From positions 1 to 30,453 of the IMG/VR virus record IMGVR_UViG_2563366799_000004: a DNA stretch of 30,453 nucleotides. One strand, given 5' to 3'. Source of the DNA: a virus. Its lineage: Duplodnaviria > Heunggongvirae > Uroviricota > Caudoviricetes. Shown here in pieces: positions 2,716 to 29,264 of this stretch (positions are counted from its first letter, which is position 1; each line of letters starts with the position of its first letter). The notes below the pieces were generated by a model that had not been told where the DNA came from, searched no databases, and saw nothing but the letters and a program-made list of their open reading frames with translations. The position numbers and the translations under genes were made by a program.

Positions 2716-3687
2716 ATGATCCGCCCGTTCATCAAATGGGCAGGGGGTAAAACCCGTGTCCTCCCTGACCTGCTGCCGCATCTTCCTAAAGCCGACTGCC
2801 TGATCGAACCGTTCGTAGGCGGCGCATCGGTATTTCTGGCGACTGAATACCGCCGCTATGTGCTGGCTGATATCAACCCGGATCTTATTAACCTGTATCG
2901 GGAAGTCACCCGTTACCCGGACTTAGTGATCGATGCGGCCCGCGAACTGTTCAACAGCAAGAATAGCCCGCAGGGGTACAACGAAGTCCGAGCCGCGTTC
3001 AATAAGCAGGTATGTACGGTAAAAAGCGGTGGGTTGCGTTATGGCGTCGAAATGGCGCGCATCATGCGTGCTGCTCAATTCCTGTATCTGAACCGCCACG
3101 GTTATAACGGCTTATGCCGTTACAGCCGTAAGACCGGCTTTAACGTGCCGTTTGGCAAGTATAAGAGCGTCTACTTTCCTGAAAATGAAATCCGCCTGTT
3201 TGCCGAAAAGGCCAACGATACAAAGGCAATATTTCTTTGCGCGCCGTTCCAGCGTTCTCTACAGGTCGTCACGGGTGGCGATGTTCTCGTTTACTGCGAT
3301 CCGCCTTACCTGCCTGAAAGCAAAACAGCCGATTTTACCCAATACCACACCGAACCATTCACGGAAGACAACCACCGCCAGTTAGTCCAGGCACTGCTGG
3401 AAGTTAACCGTAAGCATGGCGTGAAGGTTGTCATTTCCAACAGCGACACCGAAGCCACCCGCGCGATTTATCAGCCTTTCAAGATGCACGAAATCAGCGT
3501 GCAACGTTCCGTCAGCACTGACAAAGACAACCACCAGAAGGCCAAAGAAGTGATCGGCGTGCTGCCTGTCTGCGACTGCTGCGGGCGTTACGGCGGCGGT
3601 TGCCCTGATTGTGGCGCCGTGATGGGTGATGCGACTTACAACGCGATGGTTGCGGCAGGCACGTTTGACGATCTGGAGGAGTTTTAA
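2716..3687 (+). CDS. dam: DNA adenine methyltransferase (Dam family) with a Cys-rich C-terminal extension
   Basis: N-terminal SAM motif FIKWAGGK, catalytic DPPY motif, plus an extra C-terminal CDCCGRYGGGCPDCG tail. Confidence 0.85.
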   Translation: MIRPFIKWAGGKTRVLPDLLPHLPKADCLIEPFVGGASVFLATEYRRYVLADINPDLINLYREVTRYPDLVIDAARELFNSKNSPQGYNEVRAAFNKQVCTVKSGGLRYGVEMARIMRAAQFLYLNRHGYNGLCRYSRKTGFNVPFGKYKSVYFPENEIRLFAEKANDTKAIFLCAPFQRSLQVVTGGDVLVYCDPPYLPESKTADFTQYHTEPFTEDNHRQLVQALLEVNRKHGVKVVISNSDTEATRAIYQPFKMHEISVQRSVSTDKDNHQKAKEVIGVLPVCDCCGRYGGGCPDCGAVMGDATYNAMVAAGTFDDLEEF

Positions 3688-3866
3688 TGAATCTTGTAGA
3701 CGCCTGGATCGTTGAAATCATAAGCGTGAGTCGTGGCGAGATTGTGCCGTATTGGTTGGTTGAGGCGAAAGTAACAGCTTATGGAAGGGAGTCAATAACC
3801 ACAATTCTGAAGAAATCAGAAGAGGAAGCCAAAGCCGTTAAAGTAGGGGATGTAGTTCAAATATGA
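3687..3866 (+). CDS. Hypothetical small protein (59 aa), translationally coupled between dam and A
   Basis: ATG overlaps the dam stop (TAATG) and its TGA overlaps the A start (ATATGA); not in the ORF track because it is under 60 aa. Confidence 0.35.
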   Translation: MNLVDAWIVEIISVSRGEIVPYWLVEAKVTAYGRESITTILKKSEEEAKAVKVGDVVQI

Positions 3867-6220
3867 CCACGGCAACCCGTGGCCGTCGCGCCCCTTCTCC
3901 ACCTCCACCGTATCCGGGTAGCACTGACAATGCTATCCCTTACGCTTATGGCGGGAACAAACCATACCAGCCGATTGGCGTTGATGTAGCGCCGGGGCTG
4001 GATGGTTTCGACTATCTCACGCCGGACGGCACGCGTAAGCATATTGCGTTCAGTGAACTGGTAGCGGAGGACGAAAAGCCGGAACGCAGTAAGCTGCTGC
4101 GTCGCCGTCTGGCTTCTCTTCCGCAATATGTCCGCCGCCACTTTGCAGCGAAGCTTGATGCGCTGGATGTGAAAGACCGCAAAGCGGCAGATCACTGGCT
4201 GCTTAACACCTTTGAGCGCCACGTATTAACGCGTATTGATAGCGTGAACAGTGTTTACCAGCCTGATACTGTGATGCCCGGCATTCTGCTGCCAATTCGC
4301 GATCAGCTTTTCCGTATGCTCTGGGCAGGGAAAAAAGAGTTAAAAAGACTGGCTTATACGCTTGCCGATATCTTTACGAGCGAGTTTATACGCGAGTCCG
4401 ATCACCAGTTGGTGCGCACCGGCGATCCTGAGTTCGCGGCGCTTTCTGGCTATGGCCGTATTGCATCGCTGGCAGTGCATCTGAAAACGCCGATCCCCGG
4501 TTGGACAGCTTATTGCAATGAAGAACTTGAAGCGGAGGACGCGTTACGCGCAGTTCTCCGTCTTGAGTCACCGCAGTGGTGGTTAAACCGCCTGCGCCGT
4601 ATCCATGCCCGGTGGCGTGAGCATTTGATGATCGCAGCGGGATACGTCCAGAAAAAATCCTCCCCATACAGTAGCGCCCCGTGCCTTACGGAATGGCTGG
4701 CCCAGAAAAAAGCTAACCGTGAATACCTCAAGGCTATGGAACTGGAAGACCAGGACACGGGCGAGCGCATTTCGCTGATCGATAAAGTCGCCGGCAGTGT
4801 TGCCAATCCGGCCAACCGTCGCCGCGAACTCATGACGAGAATGCGCGGATTTGAAGATCTGGCGAAGCTGGAAGGGCTGGCCGGTGACTTCTACACGCTG
4901 ACAGCGCCTTCCCGCTATCACGCTATGCAGCATAACGGGCGCCGTAATAACAAATACTGTGGCGCGTCGCCGCGTGAGACACAGCAATATCTTTGCAAAG
5001 TCTGGGCGAGAACCCGCGCCGCATGGAAGAGAAAAGGGATCCGCGTCTTTGGTTTTCGCGTGGTCGAACCGCACCACGATGCAACGCCACACTGGCATTT
5101 ACTTCTTTTTATGCGCCCGGAATGCGTCGAGCAGGCGCGCGAAATCTTCCGTAAATATGCCCTGAAAGAAGACGGCAACGAACCGGGAGCGCAGGAAAAC
5201 CGCTTTCAGGTTGTGCCGATCGACGATGCCCACGGCAGCGCAACCGGCTACATAGCGAAATACATTTCGAAGAATATCGACGGCTTCGCGCTGGATGGTG
5301 AGAAAGACGACGAAACCGGGGAAGACCTGAAAGAAATGTCACTCCGCGTTAGCGCGTGGGCATCGCGCTGGGCTATTCGTCAGTTTCAGCAGATCGGCGG
5401 TGCGCCGGTCACGGTATATCGCGAACTTCGCCGCCTGGGCGATCGCGAACTGGTGTTACACCCTGAACTGGAAACCGCCCGGCAGGCCGCTAACGGTGGC
5501 GAATGGGATAACTACGTATTAGCCCAGGGTGGCCCATTGGTTGAGCGCGATAAGCTGCGCATCCGTCTGAATTATGAAACCACTGAAAACGGCAACGCCT
5601 ACGGCGATAACGTCCAGCGAATCACAGGTATTTACTGCCCTATTACGGGCAATGACTCTTTGATCTTCACCCGTACCACTCAATACAAAATCGTGCCGAA
5701 GCGCCAGAGCGCTGACGGTGTGGCCGTTGACGTTGGTTTTTCAGGCGGCAGCGCCGCCCCTCGGAGTTCTGTCAATAACTGTACGCGGGATCCCGCGGCA
5801 GGTGCTGACGGTGTTGAACATGCCGATCACGAAGTGGGCGAGACGGTGAATTTTGATGCGCTTTCACGGCAGGAAAAGCGAGAACTGGCACAGAGGCTAA
5901 GTGACGATGTGCGAAGTAAGCGGAAAAAACGGCCACCGGAACGGGAAGACGGGGCCGGGATATCCGTGAAAGAGCAGCAGATCAGTGAACTGCTGGCGCT
6001 GCGTGGGATTGATGCCAGCGTCGGAATGGTCAGATCGATGATGGCCGGTGCGTCAGTGGCGTGCGGCGATCTTGTTATGACAGTGCAGGATGGGCGGCTG
6101 GTATCGCGCAACCGCGCCGCGTCGGGGCTGGATAAGCTGCCGTCGCAGGTGATGGCGGCGAAGCAACAGACAAATAGTCTTATTAACCGAATGAAAAAAG
6201 CCTTTAACGGTGCGTCATAA
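3863..6220 (+). CDS. A: Replication initiation endonuclease, P2 gpA-like (rolling-circle)
   Basis: 785 aa; contains the conserved active-site tyrosine region GYIAKYISKNIDGF typical of P2 A. Confidence 0.9.
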   Translation: MTTATRGRRAPSPPPPYPGSTDNAIPYAYGGNKPYQPIGVDVAPGLDGFDYLTPDGTRKHIAFSELVAEDEKPERSKLLRRRLASLPQYVRRHFAAKLDALDVKDRKAADHWLLNTFERHVLTRIDSVNSVYQPDTVMPGILLPIRDQLFRMLWAGKKELKRLAYTLADIFTSEFIRESDHQLVRTGDPEFAALSGYGRIASLAVHLKTPIPGWTAYCNEELEAEDALRAVLRLESPQWWLNRLRRIHARWREHLMIAAGYVQKKSSPYSSAPCLTEWLAQKKANREYLKAMELEDQDTGERISLIDKVAGSVANPANRRRELMTRMRGFEDLAKLEGLAGDFYTLTAPSRYHAMQHNGRRNNKYCGASPRETQQYLCKVWARTRAAWKRKGIRVFGFRVVEPHHDATPHWHLLLFMRPECVEQAREIFRKYALKEDGNEPGAQENRFQVVPIDDAHGSATGYIAKYISKNIDGFALDGEKDDETGEDLKEMSLRVSAWASRWAIRQFQQIGGAPVTVYRELRRLGDRELVLHPELETARQAANGGEWDNYVLAQGGPLVERDKLRIRLNYETTENGNAYGDNVQRITGIYCPITGNDSLIFTRTTQYKIVPKRQSADGVAVDVGFSGGSAAPRSSVNNCTRDPAAGADGVEHADHEVGETVNFDALSRQEKRELAQRLSDDVRSKRKKRPPEREDGAGISVKEQQISELLALRGIDASVGMVRSMMAGASVACGDLVMTVQDGRLVSRNRAASGLDKLPSQVMAAKQQTNSLINRMKKAFNGAS

Positions 6221-6272
6221 CAGCGTGCCGGGGCTTCGCTTATTCATTTTCAGAAGAAACAGGAGTGACAGC

Positions 6273-6989
6273 ATGAGCAAAATTACCAGAGAACGCGCAG
6301 CAAAAATTGCAGCAGGCGGCGGATATAACTTTGATGAGGTGGAGGAGCTGGCGCGTATCGCGCTGGCATCGCTCGAAGCGGAGGAGTCAGGGCGAAATCC
6401 CGTGCTGGCCTATGCAGACAGTTACCGCGATATGGCTAAGCAGGGTGTTGAATCTATTCCTGTATGGAGCGTAATTACCGATCTGGAAAGAAATATCGCC
6501 CCGCTATACTCCGCCTCGCCAGCGCCGGTAGTTCCGGCAGAGCTTCATCCTGATACGCTGAAACTGGTGACCGACTTCAGCTCTGCCCTGGCTGAGAAGT
6601 TGTACAAGGCTCAATTAAAATATGGCTATGACGCGGACTGGAAACAAGATGGTTGGCCAAGCCAATGCCAGGCAGACTTTCAACAGCATATAGCTAAGGG
6701 AGACCCCCGGGATATTGCCGCTTACTGTGCATTTATGTGGTATCACGGCTGGAAAACTGAGCCAGCGCCGGTATCGCTGCCTGACGAGCAACATAGCGAA
6801 CGCTTCAACTGGACACTTGGGCAGTGGGCTGAACATGTTGGGGGTCATTACCAGGGAAATGATCCGGCAAACTATTACGAGTTCGGCTCATTCATGGCGG
6901 TCGCTGCAATGCTGTGCCAATTCGGCACCGTTCAGCAAAAAATTGGATGGAACGCCTGCCGCGCCGCCATGGTTAACGCAGGCCAGTGA
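6273..6989 (+). CDS. Cargo protein in the A-to-cos variable locus; C-terminal half loosely resembles DUF550-type prophage proteins (function unknown)
   Basis: 238 aa from ATG 6273 (SD AGGAGTGA); occupies the position of tin/old in P2; motifs KYGYDADW and KGDPRDIAAYCAFMWYHG; family assignment is from memory only. Confidence 0.6.
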   Translation: MSKITRERAAKIAAGGGYNFDEVEELARIALASLEAEESGRNPVLAYADSYRDMAKQGVESIPVWSVITDLERNIAPLYSASPAPVVPAELHPDTLKLVTDFSSALAEKLYKAQLKYGYDADWKQDGWPSQCQADFQQHIAKGDPRDIAAYCAFMWYHGWKTEPAPVSLPDEQHSERFNWTLGQWAEHVGGHYQGNDPANYYEFGSFMAVAAMLCQFGTVQQKIGWNACRAAMVNAGQ

Positions 6990-7138
6990 ATGGCTTTGCG
7001 GGAGTGCTGAAAATCAGTGCAAAATTTCGCGCAAAACCGCACAAATTTTATGATGGTGATTTTTCAGGAGCAGACCAGACGGGGCGGGCCTTCCGCTGGT
7101 CTGCACATTTGCACAAAAAAGCGGGGTTTCTGCGTGCG

Positions 7139-7157
7139 GGCGAGGCGGGGGAATGAG
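7139..7157. other. Putative cos (cohesive end) site
   Basis: GGCGAGGCGGGGGAATGAG closely resembles the P2 19-nt cohesive end GGCGAGGCGGGGAAAGCAC; lies between the A-side locus and portal gene as in P2. Confidence 0.5.
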
Positions 7158-7251: not shown

Positions 7252-7297
7252 GGTTGAGGAAAAAGAAAAGCCCCTGCCAGCAGGCTGCTGAGGGGCT
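7252..7297 (-). terminator. Rho-independent terminator downstream of portal gene Q
   Basis: Hairpin AAGCCCCT...AGGGGCTT with inner CAGCAG/CTGCTG pairing, followed on the minus strand by TTTTCTTTTTCC. Confidence 0.6.
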
Positions 7298-7367: not shown

Positions 7368-8417
7368 TCAGATTGCTGCCTGCAACAGTGCGTAAGGGTT
7401 GAAGCGCACCACGTCGATCCCCAGCCAGTCGTTTAACTCTTTCAGGCTTTCTTGTATCGGGGCCAGTTCGTTGATGGAAAACACCTTCGCCGCTTTCTCT
7501 ACGTCGCCGAAGCCACCGGAGTTATTCGGCATTACCCCCATCAGAACGGGCGGCACGCGGTGCGCGGCTAACAGGTCGTCGCGGGTGGCGTCTTTGATGC
7601 CGGTAAACTCATCCTTCGCCGCCACCTGGCTGAACGGCATAATTTGCAGGCCGTCTTTTTTCCCGCCCGCCGCGTAGACAAACAGGTTTTTAAAAGCACC
7701 GTTGCCGCGTGCATCTTTCAGCGACTTCTTAAGCTTTTCCACATCGTTATTATTCGCCACCGGGTCAGTGAGGTAGACGATCACACCCGCATGACTGCCG
7801 TTAATGTAGTAGTTGCGGCGGAACACCGTTGCTTCACCGTTCAGCATGGCGCTTTGTAGCGCGGCCAGATATTCCGGCGCACCGTAGATCTCCTGGTGCG
7901 GGCTGGGGTTCTTGATCTGGCAGACGCTGCCCGGTTCGAACGCGTGATCGTCAACGTAGCGCGGAACAAACCAGAATTGCGCCGGGTCTATGCCGCGCCG
8001 CGTATATTTTGCCTGGCTGTGCCGCAGCTCGATCGGCTGGCCGAGTCGGTTGCGGCGGCATTCCATGTAACAGTTACCGAAAATTAAATAATCCTGCACC
8101 CAGGCGGTGAACTCCTGCCGGGTCAACAGCGGGTGCGGTATGTAGCAACTGGCGATAACATTGCGTTTAAATATCAGCGGTGACTGGTGATAGGCGGCAA
8201 CGTCGAACATGCGCGCCAGCCCGTAGGGGCTGATCGGTGGTTCATACCAGCGGCCATTGTTATGGCATTCGAGGCACTCCATAAGAGACGCGCGATCGTT
8301 GACTGCGATCGGGTCGCCAAAGCTGAAAGATTCCACGCTTTCCAGCGGGGTGGCTGCGTTGCTGGCCGTGCTGGCTGGCGCAGCAGTTGGCGCCCTGAAT
8401 TTTTTTTTGCCGCTCAA
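7368..8417 (-). CDS. Q: Portal protein, P2 gpQ-like
   Basis: 349 aa; position and family resemblance to P2 Q; directly abuts P. Confidence 0.85.
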   Translation of the reverse strand: MSGKKKFRAPTAAPASTASNAATPLESVESFSFGDPIAVNDRASLMECLECHNNGRWYEPPISPYGLARMFDVAAYHQSPLIFKRNVIASCYIPHPLLTRQEFTAWVQDYLIFGNCYMECRRNRLGQPIELRHSQAKYTRRGIDPAQFWFVPRYVDDHAFEPGSVCQIKNPSPHQEIYGAPEYLAALQSAMLNGEATVFRRNYYINGSHAGVIVYLTDPVANNNDVEKLKKSLKDARGNGAFKNLFVYAAGGKKDGLQIMPFSQVAAKDEFTGIKDATRDDLLAAHRVPPVLMGVMPNNSGGFGDVEKAAKVFSINELAPIQESLKELNDWLGIDVVRFNPYALLQAAI

Positions 8418-10130
8418 TTAAAACTCCTCCACAAAACTGCCGTTATCGCCGGTCACTTCCGCGCCGATCGGTTCGTTGTAAATGCCCTGCATAGTTGCCC
8501 ATGCCAGATCGCCGTGATTGCTGCCACGGGCCCGATCGGACTGGTAGGTAATAACGCCGCCTGCGGTGACTTTACGCACGGTCATAAACGACTGTGCGAG
8601 ATCCATCATTCCGGCGTCGAACTCAAAGCGCCCGGCACGAATGACCATCAACATTTTGAGCACCATCGACCGCTTAAGAACCGGTGAATAGTTGTATTTA
8701 ACCGCCTGCGGGAAGAACTTGATCACCAGTTGATAAACCGCATCGCCGATCCCTGTGCCGTCGATAGCAATGTGCTGCACGTTGTAGCGGGTGGTGATCT
8801 CTTTAATAAATTTGGCCTGCTCTTCGTACTCCATGCCGCGTAACTGGTGGCGTTCTACCGCGCGGAACTTGCCACCCGGCACGGCTGGCGGGGCCAGCAC
8901 AACCAGCCCGGCGCTGTCGCCTTTGCCGCTGCTGCCGTTGGGGTCATAGCTAACCCAGACAGGGCGATTACCCAGCGGGCGAGGTGCAAACGGGTTCCAG
9001 TCCGGCCACGCGTCCGGCATGTAGCCATCAACGCCGCAGCCCAAAATTGTGTTGTAGTCGAAGGCGCGTTCCCCTGCTTTAACGAAGGTACATCCGTACA
9101 GGTTGGCGTATTCGTCAAGGGAGTTTTCGCTACGGATTTCATCAATATCAACCAGATCGAAACCGAGCTTCATGGCGTCTTCCAGCGTGACTATCTGGCG
9201 CCAGATGTTATCCCCGCATAGCTTGCCGTTTTTCAGTGCCTTATAACTGGTGTCGATATCCACCCGATCGGATCGGCGGCGGCTTTCATTGAACTGATCG
9301 CCAGTCCAGAAGGGATAGGCTTCATGTTCTTCACTGGAAGGCGTCGAAAAGTAGGTGCGGCGCAGTCCTTTTTGTGTCGCCATGCCTGCGGCCACCGAGC
9401 GCAGTTTGATGAAATTACTGATCCAGAAGGCTTCATCAAGGTACAGATCGCCGGTGTAGCTCTGGGCCGTCGCGGCGGAGGTGCCGAGAAAATACAGGAT
9501 CGCACCGTTGCTTAACTCAATGGCATCACCGCCCTTAAGTTCTACTCCTATTTCCCTTGCCAGCTTCTGAATGAACCGCTTGAACTGGAACGCTTGGGCG
9601 CGGCTGGCTGACAGGAATATCTGATTATTTCCGGTTTCCAGCGCACGCAACAGCGCTTCGCGGGCAAAGTACCAGGTGGCACCAATCTGGCGCGATTTGA
9701 GGATAAAGCGGTTACGCCGGTTCCACTGTTTGAACCAGCGTTTTTGATGCTCGTATAGCGAATCAAAGATCAGGGCGCGAAGCTGAGTTATCTGTTCTTC
9801 GGTGAAATGGTTTTTCGGGGTCTTCGCCTTCTTCTCTTTCTCCTGGTCGCGTCGCTCATGCCGTTCAAAGCGGTCAAGCTGGCGCGCCAGCAGGTCAATT
9901 TCTTTAAAGTCCTTCGGGGTTTTGTCGTCCTTTTCCACTAGGCGCAGGTAACGAACGTGCGTGCGATCCTGCACCCGCTGCATGGGGGTAGCTTTATCCC
10001 ATTCATAGCGGCGGCGCCAACTGTAGATCGTGTTAATGCTCACCCCGATTTCCTTAGAAATCTGAGTGATGCTAAACGCCTGCCAGTAGAGGCTTTTGGC
10101 TTTTGTGCTGAGGTCTTCGGCTGTATTCAT
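8418..10130 (-). CDS. P: Terminase ATPase (large) subunit, P2 gpP-like
   Basis: 570 aa; region ILKSRQIGATWYFAREALL (Walker A-like) and strong similarity to P2 P throughout. Confidence 0.9.
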   Translation of the reverse strand: MNTAEDLSTKAKSLYWQAFSITQISKEIGVSINTIYSWRRRYEWDKATPMQRVQDRTHVRYLRLVEKDDKTPKDFKEIDLLARQLDRFERHERRDQEKEKKAKTPKNHFTEEQITQLRALIFDSLYEHQKRWFKQWNRRNRFILKSRQIGATWYFAREALLRALETGNNQIFLSASRAQAFQFKRFIQKLAREIGVELKGGDAIELSNGAILYFLGTSAATAQSYTGDLYLDEAFWISNFIKLRSVAAGMATQKGLRRTYFSTPSSEEHEAYPFWTGDQFNESRRRSDRVDIDTSYKALKNGKLCGDNIWRQIVTLEDAMKLGFDLVDIDEIRSENSLDEYANLYGCTFVKAGERAFDYNTILGCGVDGYMPDAWPDWNPFAPRPLGNRPVWVSYDPNGSSGKGDSAGLVVLAPPAVPGGKFRAVERHQLRGMEYEEQAKFIKEITTRYNVQHIAIDGTGIGDAVYQLVIKFFPQAVKYNYSPVLKRSMVLKMLMVIRAGRFEFDAGMMDLAQSFMTVRKVTAGGVITYQSDRARGSNHGDLAWATMQGIYNEPIGAEVTGDNGSFVEEF

Positions 10131-28347: not shown

Positions 28348-28590
28348 ATGGCAATGCGCTGTCCTCGCTGCCGTGCAATAGCAAAAACCAGAACCAGCGT
28401 TGAGCTGAGTTTGCTTGTACGGCGCAGCTATCACCAGTGTCAAAATATGTTGTGCGGGTACTGTTTCACCAGCATGACGGAAATAGACGGTTCACTAAAT
28501 CAGACCCAGCCAGCGCCCGGCGCGATGGTGCCACAAGAAGCTTTTCCACGAAGTCACCACGGCGAAGATCAGTTATCGCTGGCATTATAA
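28348..28590 (+). CDS. ogr: Late gene transcriptional activator, Ogr/Delta zinc-finger family
   Basis: 80 aa; CPRC...HQCQNMLCGYC zinc-finger pattern as in P2 Ogr; located after D. Confidence 0.8.
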   Translation: MAMRCPRCRAIAKTRTSVELSLLVRRSYHQCQNMLCGYCFTSMTEIDGSLNQTQPAPGAMVPQEAFPRSHHGEDQLSLAL

Positions 28591-28592
28591 AA

Positions 28593-28625
28593 GCGGCCCC
28601 TAAATGGGGCCGTTATTTATTTCAT
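28593..28625. terminator. Bidirectional rho-independent terminator shared by ogr (+) and the convergent gene 28617..29264 (-)
   Basis: GCGGCCCC-taaat-GGGGCCGT hairpin; T-rich on the plus side (TATTTATTT) and on the minus side (TTTTATAAT). Confidence 0.6.
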
Positions 28626-29264
28626 GTTTATGGCTACAAACCTTGATCGTGTAAGGTTTTCACTTAAATATTGATCGCCACTATCCCCGGCCTTTTTGCC
28701 CCAGATATCACACGAAGATTCACCGCCCTGAAAAACGTAGCCTTTGGTTAAAATGTCGTTAGTCACATAAATATGATCGAATAAACCAGCCTTCCAAGCC
28801 CTGTTAGATTCCCCGTGATTGAAATAGCTGATGCATACGGACTGAACGGCACTTTTCGCCTGTAGTTCTTCTATGCTGTCAAAATTGAATGCAACTACTA
28901 AGGCTTTGTTGTAAATGACTGGTTTAACTGTGAGATTCAGATCTCCGAGCGCCTTGGATAAGGCAAGGGGAAGTTGATTAGTCGCTTCTGAAAAGTCGAT
29001 AGTGGTTGTTAATTGTTCTTTGGGTTTAGCCGCGGGTTGTGTTTGTTCTGTGTTTGTCACTGCTGGCTGGGGTTTATTTTCAGCAACAGCTTTCGGCGCG
29101 ACTGGTGCAACCATTGAACCTATGATTGCTGCCAAGAGGCACACCCCGAAGTAGATAGCAGATGAGCGCTTTCGATTTGGCATAAAAACCCATTTGGGAT
29201 TGATTAGCCCAACCCAAAAAGCGATCCCAGCAACAGCGGCGATAACGGTGATGATTGTTTCCAT
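28617..29264 (-). CDS. Hypothetical membrane-anchored protein (two N-terminal TM helices, Pro/Thr/Gln-rich linker, ~130-aa C-terminal domain); AT-rich cargo gene
   Basis: 215-aa ORF; visibly lower GC than both the prophage and fieF; not recognisable as CpxP or any phage structural protein. Confidence 0.6.
   Translation of the reverse strand: METIITVIAAVAGIAFWVGLINPKWVFMPNRKRSSAIYFGVCLLAAIIGSMVAPVAPKAVAENKPQPAVTNTEQTQPAAKPKEQLTTTIDFSEATNQLPLALSKALGDLNLTVKPVIYNKALVVAFNFDSIEELQAKSAVQSVCISYFNHGESNRAWKAGLFDHIYVTNDILTKGYVFQGGESSCDIWGKKAGDSGDQYLSENLTRSRFVAINMK

Follow-up and report, generated by a model that had tools for sequence, protein, structure and literature searches.

The phage P2 genes tin and old act from the prophage. 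They occupy the slot between replication gene A and the cohesive-end site cos (PMC9122126), and in the DNA studied here, a 30,453-nucleotide stretch of a Caudoviricetes record (IMG/VR IMGVR_UViG_2563366799_000004; this whole stretch is referred to as the window), the same slot holds a single gene at 6273–6989 that encodes a 238-aa protein. The gpA–gpQ locus is a documented anti-phage hotspot with 1,650 arrangements in 18,150 loci; of eight further systems from P2 hotspots that Rousset et al. cloned, three gave defence (Rousset 2022, PMC9122126). In 19% of P2 elements the main defence loci contain only unknown genes, and six of eight P4 loci of this kind tested protective (PMC13586616). The cargo gene shares its position with tin and old, but no sequence, domain or architectural similarity was found between them. 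Genes of the ea22 type are mosaic, contain portable domains such as DUF551, are transcribed from pL within minutes of infection and act as non-essential modulators (PMC10834534). PF18909 (dGTP_diPhyd_N, formerly DUF5664) forms the N-terminal domain in the Acinetobacter phage SH-Ab 15497 dATP/dGTP diphosphohydrolase and, in Arthrobacter phage Wayne, a stand-alone enzyme; the Wayne enzyme shows that PF18909 by itself is a Mn/Mg-dependent hydrolase converting deoxynucleoside triphosphates (dNTP) to monophosphates (dNMP) and pyrophosphate (PPi), with a kcat of 0.48 s-1 and a Km of 20 µM for dATP (PMC12884076).

The explanation we favour, with a probability of about 0.5, is that the 238-aa protein is a mosaic early accessory protein of the ea/nin type with a PF18909-like core that would bind or hydrolyse nucleotides, and that it serves the phage and was captured in the A–cos hotspot. 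A preceding sequence-only reading had instead proposed a single-gene defence as a plausible role and had associated the motifs of the protein with the DUF550 type.

Mosaic build and exchange of the cargo gene

The open reading frame (ORF) is intact on the plus strand, running from ATG 6273 to TGA 6989 (238 aa plus stop), and a Shine-Dalgarno (SD) sequence, AGGAG, can be read 8 nt 5' of the start codon. An alternative start at GTG 6210 would give a longer ORF running into gene A, and is not needed. The encoded protein is acidic (pI 5.0). The features of the gene are the following:

6251–6970, plus strand: exchangeable cargo cassette, delimited by blastn junctions against sister prophages
6261–6265, plus strand: Shine-Dalgarno sequence AGGAG, from the sequence
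6273–6989, plus strand: coding sequence of the 238-aa mosaic accessory protein
6273–6524, plus strand: N-terminal variable module, aa 1–84, PHROG families 660/5117/3323 (function unknown)
6525–6761, plus strand: conserved core domain, aa 85–163, PHROGs 16519/4838/60
6762–6989, plus strand: C-terminal variable module, aa 164–238, weak phrog_11500 match (function unknown)

Searches of Pfam, NCBIfam and PADLOC with the 238-aa protein gave no match, for Pfam even at E ≤ 1. With PHROGs, three stretches of the protein were matched to families without an assigned function (aa 1–92, aa 82–166 and, weakly, aa 176–218), the middle part matching phrog_16519 at 4e-47 and phrog_4838 at 7e-45. A search of 5.8 billion proteins returned 2,546 relatives, mostly from prophages of Klebsiella, Enterobacter, Salmonella and E. 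coli, and their alignment shows a near-invariant core (aa ~85–163) between unrelated flanks that are joined at short recurring motifs (MSTITRE, ELARIALASLEAEPV and WNACRAAML). The same kind of junction is evident in the cargo protein, whose N module carries MSKITRE and ELARIALASLEAE and whose C module ends in WNACRAAM. Many relatives have extra domains (DUF551, DUF550, Ead_Ea22 or Lar), and full-length relatives of similar size (220–259 aa) also exist. The 238-aa protein is itself a mosaic of portable modules shared with DUF551, DUF550 and Ead proteins.

The modules also differ clearly in their synonymous (dS) and non-synonymous (dN) divergence. Compared with a gene of a P22-like phage (metagenome contig L018, 6001–6936), dS was 0.02 in the core and 0.25 in the N module, and the C module was unrelated, while comparison of the core with a homologue in a Klebsiella lambdoid phage gave a dN of 0.06 and a dS of 1.5 (dN/dS about 0.04). 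As judged by this pattern, the core is a strongly constrained and recently exchanged module, and the flanks are interchangeable and poorly constrained. The comparison points to a module of ~240 bp recently traded between P22-like and P2-like phages, and near-identical core DNA in both shows module traffic between unrelated temperate groups.

The cassette as a whole is likewise exchangeable. In the sister P2-like prophages of E. coli TOK-001 and 2020N21-246, the same A–cos slot holds a Dam-type orphan methylase (L002 1945–3110 and L003 2085–2813; PADLOC MTase_II/oMTase matches), with or without an accompanying 102-aa ORF. As a separate observation, the early operon of the window already holds a Dam methylase of its own (2716–3687). 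Blastn homology between TOK-001 and the window ends at 6250 and restarts at 6971, while the left junction of 2020N21-246 lies earlier, at 6173, inside the 3' end of gene A. From these junctions the cassette is delimited to 6251–6970, and therefore comprises 22 nt including the SD sequence and the ORF without its last six codons. These six codons and the stop (...AGQ*) are common to the cargo ORF and the unrelated Dam-type cargo (window 6971–6989, L002 3092–3110 and L003 2795–2813), and the right-hand swap junction, as read from these alignments, falls within the 3' part of the coding sequence. The end of the ORF is then supplied by the backbone, or else recombination exploits a short common stretch. 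The GC content of the cargo gene is 0.54 (GC3 0.54), against 0.56 (GC3 0.59) for gene A. The single-gene cargo proposed in the sequence-only reading is thus borne out by the ORF, its SD sequence and the cassette boundaries, and the variability of the slot both by the literature (PMC9122126) and by the different cargo in close sister prophages.

The cargo was found in three of 5,426 complete E. coli genomes, and an identical protein is present on at least 24 assembled contigs, invariably in the same context. An allelic variant in the same P2 slot (P0004; L015 6001–6663) encodes 220 aa with 83% protein identity; its DNA is ~99.3% identical except for a clean swap of aa 38–76 for a shorter unrelated segment, the replaced segment being flanked by the motifs ...ASLEAE and PLY.A.PAP. 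In the genome of E. coli 730V1, RefSeq tags a 99.8%-identical copy as a pseudogene, 'incomplete; missing C-terminus' (NZ_CP061764.1, ID627_RS26640, L001 8474–8998, corresponding to window 6273–6797). This copy contains three substitutions and neither frameshifts nor stops, and a pseudogene reading was rejected because the flagged copy has no lesion. The flag probably stems from comparison with longer mosaic relatives, and it illustrates that mosaic genes may mislead automated annotation. The ORF is a real coding sequence, since the identical protein recurs on these contigs and its core is under strong purifying selection. It was also seen that in E. coli SZQ1 (NZ_CP173996.1) two places match the query, and this strain may have another P2-like prophage or an additional, partial copy.

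The core domain and its distant resemblance to PF18909

The 91-aa core was used in an exhaustive phmmer search of 1.84 billion cluster representatives (50% identity clusters). The family comprises 1,932 proteins at E ≤ 1e-3, 1,520 of them at E ≤ 1e-10, and no Pfam or NCBIfam model covers it. The position of the core varies from residue 1 to ~300 in proteins of 124–586 aa, and divergent members are found in phages of Burkholderia, Pseudomonas (166 kb), Yersinia and Vibrio/Aeromonas, in T5-like phages and in a 209-kb cyanophage. K109, K116, W128, H139, K142, G143, D144, P145, D147, A153 and F154 are invariant across the divergent members, including D144-x-x-D147 on the a2/a3 turn, and every face of helix a3 is conserved. 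Divergent members have other residues in place of E108, and no acidic residue of helix 1 is conserved, the metal-binding motif of the MazG type included. The residues C132, H139, C152 and H158 seemed invariant in 222 close members, but an obligatory Cys/His metal site was rejected, as C132 is absent in Pseudomonas and Burkholderia phages, C152 in a Yersinia phage and H158 in Burkholderia vB_E177.

The full-length AlphaFold model was unusable (mean pLDDT 48.9). The core alone, modelled with an 84-sequence alignment, gave a pLDDT of 89.7 and a pTM of 0.73, with a predicted helix a1 (93–117), a KYG..W loop, helix a2 (128–142), a KGDP turn and helix a3 (145–158). Foldseek of this model against the PDB returned nothing significant, and sequence and profile searches of PDB chains gave chance matches only (best E 0.49). 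In the viral structure library the top Foldseek matches were unnamed members of the core's own family; eight of the first 50 were proteins named 'dATP/dGTP diphosphohydrolase (N-terminal domain)', each individually non-significant, and the SH-Ab 15497 enzyme is among these eight. Of the checks proposed in the sequence-only reading, searches with hidden Markov models (HMM) in Pfam and PADLOC were empty, and structure prediction was confident for the core and unusable for the full-length protein.

That reading had quoted two motifs in the C-terminal half, KYGYDADW and KGDPRDIAAYCAFMWYHG, and associated them with DUF550-type proteins. Both are present, at aa 116–123 (6618–6641) and aa 142–159 (6696–6749), respectively, which places them centrally and not strictly within the C-terminal half. 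They define a large unnamed phage domain family of ~1,900 clusters that extends from enterobacterial prophages to cyanophages. The assignment to DUF550 (PF04447), however, was rejected. Neither the whole protein nor the core alone matched PF04447 at E ≤ 1, while genuine DUF550 domains in the homologues score 135–148 bits. The core and DUF550 occur together in 25 of 238 collected homologues, never overlapping, with the core first in 13 and DUF550 first in 12, and in every homologue with PF04447 this domain lies outside the stretch aligned to the 238-aa protein. In hhalign the core matched DUF550 with a probability of 1.0–1.3%, no better than the reversed control. One 477-aa phage homologue is labelled 'dATP/dGTP pyrophosphohydrolase'; it contains the core at ~136–227, PF04447 at 220–313 and DUF551 at 408–472, and its label most likely derives from the neighbouring domain. 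DUF550, of the MazZ type, resembles the core as a small, helical domain of phages in the realm of NTP pyrophosphohydrolases and is frequently its neighbour in the same polypeptide. It is nevertheless a distinct domain, found on either side of the core and absent from the 238-aa protein.

A more promising resemblance is to PF18909. The SH-Ab 15497 enzyme contains PF18909 at residues 3–98 and PF04447 at 170–244, and its PF18909 part reads ...GEQKYGRSNW...RHIAQIEKGEDID..., which resembles the two quoted motifs. The PF18909 model itself gave no match to the 238-aa protein at E ≤ 1, while the SH-Ab 15497 protein, used as positive control, scored 85.9 bits. In profile comparison with hhalign, a 27-sequence core profile matched the single SH-Ab 15497 sequence with a probability of 64.7% (E 6e-5), and matched an 11-phage PF18909 alignment, assembled from phage tblastn matches, with 50% (P 1.6e-4, 47 columns). 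The controls gave 0.2% (reversed), 1.3% (DUF550) and 0.5% (reversed DUF550), but a 222-sequence, more redundant core alignment reached only 24% against the same PF18909 alignment. The aligned positions are K116-Y117(-G), W123, H139 and G143-D144-x-x-D147. With reference to the PF18909 signature (G-x2-KY...NW, RH, GExxD-x-ESG-x2-H-x2-H), this means that KY(G)..W, H139 and G143-D144-x-x-D147, which are invariant in the core family, align. The ESGxxHxxH segment following GExxD is absent from the core, and the N-terminal K-x-D-x-GK lead-in is unrecognisable.

Both domains are phage-borne, all-helical, about 90 aa long and often fused to DUF550. By the alignment both appear to have a K-Y-(G)-x2-3-W loop and a [DE]-L-x-P lead-in, as well as a conserved His that precedes a G-[DE]-x-x-D turn by two turns. 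They differ in that helix 1 of the core extends about two turns further and the core has no ESGxxHxxH segment, and in that the core is found mostly in mosaic ea/nin proteins encoded by temperate phages of enterobacteria and not in Z-genome or nucleotide-metabolism modules. AF0060 (PDB 2P06), which forms its own family in the all-alpha NTP pyrophosphohydrolase superfamily (MazG/HisE/dimeric dUTPase), has 14% identity to the core, which lacks the conserved MazG-type metal-binding motif of helix 1. Judging from its H-x2-KGDPxD turn, its KYG..W loop and its three helices, the core is probably related to PF18909, though distantly and in shortened form, and would belong to the all-alpha NTP pyrophosphohydrolase fold; the similarity is suggestive, a lead rather than demonstrated membership. 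The earlier association with nucleotide pyrophosphohydrolases survives in this altered form, by way of PF18909 and AF0060. An association with DUF550 proteins does exist, although the motifs themselves are not DUF550. As a moderate lead, a nucleotide-pyrophosphohydrolase-like nature is the best available on the biochemical side, and it could annotate thousands of phage proteins now called 'hypothetical'.

Genomic contexts, expression and rival explanations

In all six temperate-phage contexts sampled, the homologue lies inside an early operon: in two of them in the nin region, between replication genes and ninB/ninE/rusA; in three in the pL-side ea/exo-xis region, beside Ead_Ea22 genes and xis/int; and in one in an early region that precedes a GPA-type replication gene. 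The last of these (L033; Salmonella DAAUQG010000004.1, 5001–9900) encodes a 375-aa homologue, with pRha, ASH and a Phage_GPA replication gene lying downstream and RecE-like exonuclease VIII and PAPS reductase-like genes in the same early region, and by its gene order is a second, independent association of the core family with GPA-type replication modules. The family also reaches virulent phages of 150–200 kb, and in the divergent or virulent phages the core gene adjoins genes for helicase, topoisomerase, DNA polymerase I, exonuclease or thymidylate synthase. In these contexts the relatives lie in phage early or lytic modules rather than in defence islands or prophage cargo loci. The 238-aa protein and Ea22/Ead-type proteins are alike in being acidic and modular with portable domains, and the homologues share the genomic home of Ea22/Ead-type genes (exo-xis/nin). 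Unlike these, the cargo gene lies in the A–cos hotspot of a P2-like prophage, an unusual location right after an early replication gene. The Ead_Ea22 coiled coil (PF13935), which is present N-terminal to the core in some homologues, had no Pfam match in the 238-aa protein.

A consensus scan detected no promoter-like site between gene A and the ATG and no terminator after gene A, and the cassette, which begins 22 nt ahead of the ATG, has no promoter of its own by the same scan. As the cargo gene follows gene A with only its own SD sequence and without a detectable promoter or terminator, we infer that it would be the last gene transcribed in the early replication operon, in lytic growth or induction and not from the repressed prophage. 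We envisage that three modules were assembled at short conserved junction motifs into one accessory gene, and that this lambdoid-type early gene was captured into the A–cos hotspot of a P2-like prophage. Its product would bind nucleotides, and possibly hydrolyse them, to the benefit of the phage at about the time of DNA replication, where its role may be pool shaping, house-cleaning or counter-defence. The promoterless cassette, the occurrence of the domain in virulent phages and the orphan methylase as alternative cargo all fit a phage-serving lytic gene co-transcribed with gene A.

An unlikely but serious alternative is that the protein is a non-catalytic developmental modulator, with the core as an oligomerisation or host-protein-binding module and an Ea22-like role in tuning the lysis–lysogeny decision, host replication or stress responses that would involve no action on nucleotides. 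Its architecture, partner domains and genomic neighbourhood are those of mosaic Ea22-type proteins, which are mosaic, acidic, oligomeric, early and non-essential (PMC10834534), and the 238-aa protein is acidic as well; conservation on every face of helix a3 would be expected of an interface, and the canonical MazG acidic motif is missing from helix 1. However, polar or charged side chains predominate among the invariant residues (K109, K116, H139, K142, D144 and D147), these residues align with conserved positions of the enzyme family, the domain also occurs beside replication and nucleotide-metabolism genes in virulent phages, which have no lysogeny decision to tune, and the PF13935 coiled coil is absent. 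A further possibility, which we regard as improbable, is that the core constitutes an unrecognised minimal catalytic branch of the PF18909/all-alpha group that uses these same six residues, perhaps with a substrate other than bulk dNTPs, such as an immune signalling nucleotide or an alarmone. If so, the family of ~1,900 clusters would represent a widespread phage counter-defence module or, at this locus, a nucleotide-depleting exclusion gene.

The single-gene defence of the sequence-only reading, expressed from the prophage and acting for example by nucleotide depletion or modification on infection, appears quite improbable. The gene does occupy the documented gpA–gpQ hotspot (PMC9122126), P4 loci with only unknown genes were protective in six of eight cases and 19% of P2 elements have loci of this sort (PMC13586616), and a nucleotide-hydrolase-like fold would be compatible with depletion. 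Nevertheless, PADLOC-DB gave no match with either the ATG or the GTG start, the cassette has neither a promoter nor a sensor or regulator partner, and homologues in repressed lambdoid early operons and in virulent phages follow a phage-serving pattern. Moreover, what sister prophages of this backbone lineage carry instead is an orphan methylase and no defence system, only three of the eight extra P2 systems of Rousset et al. defended, and the GC content resembles the backbone and not that of typical morons. Location is the sole argument for defence here, and the P2 A–cos position by itself is insufficient for such a call: in this lineage the slot is occupied by an orphan methylase or by an early gene of lambdoid type that lacks a promoter. 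Finally, the gene might be a decaying remnant that encodes only part of a once longer mosaic protein and is functionless by itself, as the RefSeq flag on the 730V1 copy and the many longer homologues with additional C-terminal domains could suggest. This explanation is effectively refuted by the intact ORF with its SD sequence, the lack of any lesion in the flagged copy, the identical protein on at least 24 contigs together with an in-frame variant, the full-length homologues of 220–259 aa and the strong purifying selection on the core.

Surrounding features of the locus

The window contains a P2-like prophage inserted between cpxP and fieF of E. coli. To the left of the cargo gene lie the P2-like genes for integrase, Cox, Fil and the Dam methylase (2716–3687), followed by gene A, the final backbone gene of the early operon, whose stop is 52 nt ahead of the cargo ATG; to the right, on the opposite strand, are portal, terminase, scaffold and capsid genes. 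The 238-aa ORF is the sole cargo between gene A and cos. The linear records of Salmonella phages SEN4 and SEN5 start exactly at window position 7139 (GGCGAGGCGGGGG...), which therefore places cos 150 bp past the stop codon and fixes the order A – gene – cos – Q, in agreement with the tin/old position assigned earlier. The cos site is taken to be 19 nt long and similar to the P2 cos sequence. The flanking features are:

3863–6220, plus strand: replication endonuclease gene A, 785 aa, Phage_GPA
7139–7157, strand not assigned: cos cohesive-end site (GGCGAGGCGGGGGAATGAG), from the SEN4/SEN5 record starts, with an assumed length of 19 nt
7368–8417, minus strand: portal gene Q, the backbone gene closing the hotspot on the far side
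8418–10130, minus strand: terminase

Between the stop codon and cos, a hairpin with a 13-bp stem is found at 7070–7104 on the plus strand (GCAGACCAG.CGG...CCGCTGGTCTGC). The 76-nt stretch containing it has a dG of about -27 kcal/mol, with a z of -1.6 versus shuffles, and no T-run. A terminator was rejected on these grounds, as the stability is not significantly above that of the shuffles and the T-run is absent; the hairpin could be an accessory site for terminase and cos, or nothing. On the minus strand, just past the portal gene, a terminator-like hairpin (7269–7286) precedes TTTCTTTTTC and probably marks the end of the Q–P late transcript.

At the attR end, a 215-aa ORF with an N-terminal hydrophobic helix is found on the opposite strand (28617–29264, minus), between ogr (28348–28590) and host fieF (29533 onward). 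It had no match in Pfam or PADLOC. The region has a low GC content (~45%, versus ~55% for the backbone), and the ORF looks like classic moron or lysogenic-conversion cargo.

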